A stretch of 64,000 bases of DNA from Escherichia coli (GTDB lineage Bacteria > Pseudomonadota > Gammaproteobacteria > Enterobacterales > Enterobacteriaceae), in NCBI RefSeq assembly GCF_045037415.1, contig NZ_CP173438.1. The stretch is one strand, 5' to 3'. Position numbers and translations under genes: made by a program. The notes below the pieces were generated by a model. That model did no database searches. It was not told where the DNA came from and saw only the letters and a program-made list of their open reading frames with translations. Position 1 is the first letter of the stretch. Every line of letters starts with the position of its first letter. Of this stretch, positions 33,421 to 35,327 are shown piece by piece.

Positions 33421-33684
33421 TCAGGCGCGGATTTGTTGTGATGTGGTTGTGCTCTGGCAGATAGCAACGTGTGCGACGTCCACCAGTTTATTTAACTGAC
33501 TAAACAGTAAGTCGACCGACCGTGGGCTGGCAACGGTCAATTCGATATTTATATTTTGTGCATCGCTGGCGGCAGCCATATTCATTGAGCAGACGTGGAA
33601 ACCACGATGACGCACCACGCGTAAAACACGTTCTAAGGTTTCCGGATTGAAGCGAGCCGATACATTGACCTGATGTTGCATCAT
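33421..33684 (-). CDS. ilvM: Acetolactate synthase II small subunit (87 aa)
   Basis: ORF track; ATGA overlap with ilvG stop. Confidence 0.9.
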
Positions 33685-35327
33685 GATAATTTCTCCAACA
33701 TTTCAGAATTACTGGCACCAGGCGGCACCAGCGGCCAGACGTTCTCAAGTTCGTCGATTGAGACATGAAGCAGGTATGGCCCATCACTGTTCAGCATGGT
33801 GTCGAGTGCCGCTTCAACCTGGTCTTTATGGGTGATGTGTTGGCCAGGGATGCCGAAGGCGCTGGCTAACATGAGGAAATCGGGGTTATCGGTAAGGGTG
33901 GTTTCGCTGTATCGTTCCTGGAAAAACAGTTGCTGCCATTGTCGAACCATCCCTAACCGTTGGTTATCGAGTAAGACGATTTTCAACGGTAACTGCTTGC
34001 GTTTTACGGTGCCCAGCTCTTGCACATTCATCATAAAAGAGCCGTCACCGGAGATACAGACGACAGTATCGTTCGGTCGCGCGACTTGTGCGCCAACCGC
34101 CGCCGGTAAACCGAAACCCATGGTGCCTAAGCCGCTGGAGGTGATGAAGTTTTCCGGGCGAGTGTGGACGATGTGCTGGGCAGCCCACATCTGGTGCTGC
34201 CCCACATCTGTGGTCACGATGCAATCCGCAGGTTTACGATCCGACAGTTGTTTTAACAACAACGGCGCGTAGATAGCGTCACCAGGATGGTCGTAACGCC
34301 AGGCATGTTCATCACGCAGTTGCGCGCAGTGTTGCTGCCAGTCATCGATATTTAACGGCTGCTGTAATGCTGGTAACAGAGCATTTAAATCACCCTGTAA
34401 TGCCACATGTGCCTGACGCAGCTTGTTCATTTCTGCCGGATCGATATCCATATGGATAACGCTGGCGTGTGGTGCGAAGGTGTTCAGTTTGCCGGTCACC
34501 CGGTCATCAAAACGTGCGCCCACGGCTATCAGTAGATCGCACTCCTGCACTGCGAAGTTCGCCGCTTTGGTGCCGTGCATCCCCAGCATGCCCAGATAGT
34601 ACGGATAATCTGCTTCTACTGCGCCCAGCCCTTTCAACGTACAGGTGGCAGGCATTTTTGTGGCAGCGAGAAATTCACGCAAAGCCGAAACTGCCTGCGC
34701 CATGCCCACGCCACCGCCAACGTACAGCATCGGTTTTTGCGCTTTTGCCAGCATCTGACGCGCTTGCTCGACTTCGGCATGTGGGAAAGTCACTTCGTTT
34801 TCAACAGTGGTGAACCACGGTTCCAGATCGCCGCTGGCTAACTGGATATCTTTTGGAATATCGACCAAAACCGGACCAGGACGACCAGAGCTGGCGACGT
34901 CAAACGCTTCGGCCATGATACGCGGTAACTCTTCCAGTGATTGCACCAGGAAACTGTGCTTGGTGCAGGCTAACGACAACCCCAGAATATCCACCTCCTG
35001 AAATGCGTCAGTGCCGATAAACGGTGCGGATACCTGACCGGTGATAGCAACAACGGGGATGGAATCTAACAGCGCGTCCGCAAGCCCGGTTATCAGGTTG
35101 GTTGCACCTGGGCCAGACGTGGCGATGCAAACGCCAGTTTTGCCGGTAGCACGGGCATAACCGATAGCCGCCATTGCTGCACCTTGCTCGTGTCGGCACA
35201 GCAAGTGTTCCACGCCACCGTCATACAATGCATCGTAAACCGGCATAATTGCGCCACCCGGATAACCGAAAACGGTGTTTACACCCTGTGCCCGCAACGC
35301 ATGTACCACCCACTGTGCACCATTCAT
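33681..35327 (-). CDS. ilvG: Acetolactate synthase II large subunit, uninterrupted 548-aa frame
   Basis: ORF track 548 aa from [16 protein letters not shown] to EKLS with no frameshift; TPP-enzyme family. Confidence 0.9.

Follow-up and report, generated by a model that had tools for sequence, protein, structure and literature searches.

An intact ilvG reading frame in the ilvLXGMEDA operon of a non-K-12 Escherichia coli, predicted to encode acetohydroxyacid synthase II and to confer valine resistance

The window analyzed here, a 64,000-nucleotide stretch of an Escherichia coli contig (NZ_CP173438.1), carries ilvG at 33681..35327 on the minus strand, a detail left unstated in the initial annotation. 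Direct reading of the sequence together with the ORF list revealed a single 548-aa ORF with an ATG start and zero internal stops, an intact catalytic subunit of acetolactate (acetohydroxyacid) synthase II (AHAS II). The product scored 1074.3 bits against the NCBIfam equivalog model NF006524 ('acetolactate synthase 2 catalytic subunit', cut-off 738), with residues 1-547 aligned over the full length on model positions 1-547 of 548, and it also passed TIGR00118, the general model for biosynthetic acetolactate synthase large subunits. The Pfam domains TPP_enzyme_N, TPP_enzyme_M and TPP_enzyme_C follow one another in this order, as in the three-domain architecture of ThDP enzymes; the ThDP/Mg2+ motif GDG...N is kept in a stretch that begins at residue 427, and the catalytic glutamate E47 is present. 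The uninterrupted 548-aa ilvG claimed in the initial annotation is thus borne out by both the ORF and the family models.

The ORF could in principle encode another ThDP enzyme (AHAS I or III, catabolic acetolactate synthase or glyoxylate carboligase), as all of those families return significant E-values and the closest solved structure in a PDB sequence search is that of E. coli AHAS I (6lpi). The E-values are significant because the families are homologous, and the same PDB search did not find a solved structure of E. coli AHAS II. Only NF006524 and the general TIGR00118 rise above their curated cut-offs, whereas the models for AHAS I/III, catabolic acetolactate synthase, glyoxylate carboligase and pyruvate oxidase all leave the product under their cut-offs, the other specific models far under. 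The ORF also sits between ilvX and ilvM in an ilvLXGMEDA arrangement collinear with K-12. Model cut-offs and operon position together refute assignment to another ThDP family, to which we attach practically no probability.

Downstream of ilvG on the same strand lies ilvM (33421..33684, minus strand), encoding the 87-aa AHAS II small subunit with an ACT_5 domain (NF008362, 133.9 bits, cut-off 68). The ilvM ATG overlaps the ilvG TGA as ATGA, as read from the sequence, and the IlvM protein is identical to those of K-12 and CFT073. The operon continues on the minus strand with ilvE (32472..33401), the branched-chain amino-acid aminotransferase gene, identified by a gapless full-length match of 97.0% to K-12 and by annotation in the 100%-identical SK1144 region; with the ORF of ilvD (30557..32407), encoding a dihydroxy-acid dehydratase of 616 aa, gapless and 95.7% identical to K-12; and with the ORF of its last gene, ilvA (29010..30554), encoding the biosynthetic threonine deaminase (94.5% to K-12; annotated in SK1144). 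The order ilvL-ilvX-ilvG-ilvM-ilvE-ilvD-ilvA is collinear with K-12, SK1144 and CFT073. Beyond the operon, the 3′ ends of the convergent ilvA and ilvY overlap by 4 bp (29010-29013) in place of a 51-bp spacer in K-12; K-12 ilvY is 3 nt longer, and about 58 bp of K-12 sequence around ilvA/ilvY lacks a counterpart here.

On the upstream side, the 16-aa ORF ilvX (35330..35380, minus strand) stops 2 nt before the ilvG ATG; its translation is identical to that of K-12, and ilvX is annotated in SK1144 and CFT073. It is preceded by ilvL (35467..35565, minus strand), an ORF for a leader peptide of 32 residues, many of them Ile, Val or Leu (MTALLRVISLVVISVVVIIIPPCGAALGRGKA), which scored 81.9 bits against NF007744 ('ilv operon leader peptide', cut-off 59) and differs from K-12 by one synonymous change, leaving the 32-aa leader identical. 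The Rfam model RF02744 covers 35347-35636, with ilvL inside, at 152.9 bits (cut-off 88). The leader is followed by the attenuator (35411..35446, minus strand), a G+C-rich hairpin and then eight U, i.e. an intrinsic terminator, whose RNA fold of -23.3 kcal/mol (z-score -3.64) was equaled by 0 of 200 shuffles and whose sequence is identical to K-12. A promoter/terminator consensus scan did not report this hairpin on the coding (minus) strand, since it has an internal mismatch, and direct folding of that strand revealed it. The scan and the K-12 alignment also gave a promoter-like site upstream of ilvL (35650..35677, minus strand), consisting of TTGAGA, a 16-nt spacer and AAAAAT, where K-12 has TTGAAA in place of TTGAGA. 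By analogy with what is known of K-12, this would be the putative ilvG promoter; the site is a consensus match in a scan whose site count was no higher than the shuffled expectation, and it was therefore not used as evidence. Over the 600 nt upstream of ilvG there are 14 mismatches to K-12, several of them in the promoter-proximal region.

The K-12 MG1655 ilvG (b4488) is annotated in NC_000913.3 as a pseudogene of 1645 bp (3950560-3952204). Global pairwise alignment of the 1647-bp ilvG with this allele gave 95.2% nucleotide identity, the two differing at 77 aligned positions and by one gap of 2 bp. This gap falls at 34348..34351 (minus strand), where the plus strand reads ATAT and the coding strand AAATATC; two of these four bases are absent in K-12, which reads AAATC, and the alignment places the missing AT at gene nt 977-978 (window 34350-34351). 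Consequently, the ilvG described here reads CCG TTA AAT ATC GAT GAC TGG (PLNIDDW) and stays open to codon 548, whereas K-12 reads CCG TTA AAT CAA TGA (PLNQ-stop), with the TGA at codon 328. The 2-bp deletion, the stop at codon 328 and the pseudogene annotation confirm the earlier statement that K-12 ilvG is frameshifted, and alignment to K-12, which the initial annotation had proposed as a check, places that frameshift at gene nt 977-978, with both bases present here. Neither the ORF reading nor the K-12 alignment found a frameshift or premature stop within 33681-35327, the finding that had been named in advance as grounds for abandoning the claim, and the K-12-type pseudogene, with its 2-bp deletion and TGA at codon 328, is not what this sequence carries. 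The K-12 lesion has been described as 'two separate base pair insertions' (PMC3032704); the alignment instead shows K-12 to be two adjacent bases shorter than intact alleles, and a lesion by two insertions was rejected.

To count the K-12 allele, 5,426 complete E. coli genomes were searched with a probe of 100 bases that spans the K-12 junction, and only 340 of them (about 6%) matched it at ≥99% identity. Of the junction-bearing genomes, three were sampled (ER1709, an O16:H48 strain and a 4.63-Mb strain), and all of them appear to derive from K-12. All the other matches listed that cover the whole probe span 102 bases, i.e. the two extra bases are present, and among these listed matches many are otherwise the same as K-12 across the probe stretch. 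In E. coli an intact ilvG is ancestral and by far the most frequent condition, with K-12 as the exception. The description of the strain as not K-12-like at this locus therefore holds for the intact allele and fails as a distinguishing trait. Earlier work likewise describes an intact ilvG in E. coli B, W and Crooks; B was shown to be valine-resistant, and resistance was predicted for all three (PMC3446290, PMC3032704). Nissle 1917, unlike K-12, can grow on dipeptides that contain valine (PMC7924626).

All 1647 bases of ilvG are 100% identical in several other complete genomes, where the gene is annotated as ilvG, and at least 40 genomes, among them EC958, JJ1886, JJ1887 and further strains of O25b:H4-ST131, match at 100% identity the 16.8 kb from rep to hdfR that include the ilv region. 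A frameshift masked by an error of sequencing or assembly is a general possibility with nothing further in its favor; dozens of complete genomes, each assembled independently, agree at 100% identity with these 1647 bases and with the 16.8 kb around them, and we regard such an artefact as exceedingly improbable. At the level of sequence, the identity confirms that the ilv locus is ST131-like, of the type found in natural isolates of E. coli and not in the K-12 laboratory strain.

When the K-12 frame was repaired in silico, the codon differences from ilvG came to 66 synonymous and 9 non-synonymous, the latter being V114I, C146S, P214S, N328D, S342A, V370I, A387V, H494P and R500H. This excess of synonymous over non-synonymous differences indicates purifying selection on the gene. 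Thirteen IlvG residues (A26, E47, V99, A108, F109, Q110, K159, M250, R276, V375, D428, N455 and W464), which we take from the AHAS II mutagenesis literature to be functionally important, are all conserved. It could still be argued that, despite the intact frame, AHAS II fails to be produced or lacks activity, leaving the strain valine-sensitive, and the nine substitutions or the changes near the promoter, among the 14 upstream mismatches, could be blamed. Such a silent or inactive enzyme is at odds with the purifying-selection pattern, with the conservation of every functional residue checked and with a leader peptide and attenuator sequence identical to those of K-12. It is also at odds with the genetics of CFT073, whose IlvG is one residue apart, whose IlvM is the same and which depends on ilvG in urine. 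According to a 2025 preprint, AHAS II is the only conditionally essential AHAS of CFT073 in human urine and the only one able to sustain its growth there; without ilvG this strain stops growing in urine unless isoleucine is supplied, and repair of the MG1655 ilvG frameshift restores growth in urine (bioRxiv 10.1101/2025.10.31.685768). A silent or inactive AHAS II is accordingly very unlikely. From the near-identity to CFT073 IlvG and IlvM and these published genetics, we infer instead a functional, valine-insensitive allele, i.e. an acetohydroxyacid synthase activity uninhibited by valine.

From atpI to glmZ the gene order of the window follows that of K-12, and divergence from K-12 is uneven along it. 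The genes from ilvG to ppiC (26171-35327, about 9 kb) are 94.0-97.0% identical to K-12, except for ilvM at 98.9%, whereas the genes flanking this block, out to thrP, are 96-99.7% identical, mostly 97-99.7%. An unusual divergence of ilvG alone was considered and rejected, as ilvD, ilvA, ilvY, ilvC and ppiC are equally diverged. At 93.0-94.1%, aslA/aslB (823-3804) likewise stand further from K-12 than their neighbors do, and the divergence of both regions may reflect a recombination mosaic between phylogroups. A further reading, in which phylogroup B2 long ago acquired the ilvG-ppiC block by recombination as a distinct ilv haplotype, is speculative and improbable; if it were true, the AHAS II encoded there, which departs from K-12 by 9 substitutions, might have kinetics or an inhibitor sensitivity of its own that matter for growth in urine.

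Several further features of the window were recorded. The ppiC-rep intergenic region (26085-26170) measures about 85 bp, compared with about 860 bp including the yifN pseudogene in K-12; none of the sequence of this K-12 yifN segment was found in the window, and the short form is common to SK1144 and CFT073. Divergent from ilvL, yifB (35888-37438) is an intact 516-aa ORF here, while the CFT073 copy is frameshifted in the RefSeq annotation. A complete rRNA operon (38858-44087, minus strand), rrnC by position, comprises 16S, tRNA-Glu, 23S, 5S, tRNA-Asp and tRNA-Trp genes, with an Rfam StyR-44 match directly upstream of the 23S gene. The replication origin oriC at 59920-60151, between mnmG and mioC, is 98.7% identical to K-12 oriC across all 232 bp, with DnaA-box matches at 59906, 59980 and 60086. 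Rfam searches also located the GlmZ sRNA (192-398, 217.5 bits), a TrxA 5′UTR thermometer (20971-21070, 78.8 bits) and four tRNAs at 3954-4386 that correspond by position to the K-12 argX-hisR-leuT-proM cluster.

AHAS II acts on two pyruvate molecules, towards valine and leucine, or on pyruvate and 2-ketobutyrate, towards isoleucine, and valine, which feedback-inhibits AHAS I and III, leaves it uninhibited. In the present strain, ilvG would yield the catalytic subunit at full length, with thiamine diphosphate, FAD and Mg2+ as its cofactors, and ilvM, translationally coupled to ilvG, would supply the small subunit, with transcription of the operon presumably controlled by attenuation at the ilvL leader. 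With AHAS II made, isoleucine synthesis would be expected to continue in the presence of valine, since this enzyme is not feedback-inhibited by it, which would make the cell valine-resistant. Because ilvG has no premature stop, the K-12-type polarity on ilvEDA should be absent, and the intact gene predicts normal expression of the downstream operon genes along with valine resistance. Expression, AHAS II activity and valine resistance of this strain are well-supported predictions drawn from the DNA, nothing at the sequence level speaks against a functional, intact operon, and we hold with high confidence that the locus is ilvLXGMEDA in its wild-type form, from an E. coli other than K-12, and that it encodes full-length AHAS II and should render the cell valine-resistant. 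The finding of an intact ilvG is correct, ordinary and already known biology. Given the recently reported conditional essentiality of AHAS II for uropathogenic E. coli in human urine, ilvG would be physiologically relevant in this lineage, a role that has already been described.

Among known systems, the ilvG of E. coli ST131 (EC958, JJ1886 and SK1144; WP_001012588.1) shares 100% nucleotide identity with the gene described here, in ilvG and throughout the 16.8-kb region, as well as the same operon order, and no difference was detected. The ilvG of the uropathogenic strain CFT073 (WP_001012593.1) has the same length and the same context, and differs from it by 7 nucleotides and 1 amino acid, residue 182 being Ser in CFT073 IlvG and Pro both here and in K-12. 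K-12 MG1655 carries ilvG at the same locus with the same flanking genes, and the products of its ilvL, ilvX and ilvM have the same amino-acid sequences as those here; unlike the present sequence, it has the early TGA and is marked by the loss of AHAS II, by valine sensitivity and by a reported polarity on ilvEDA.
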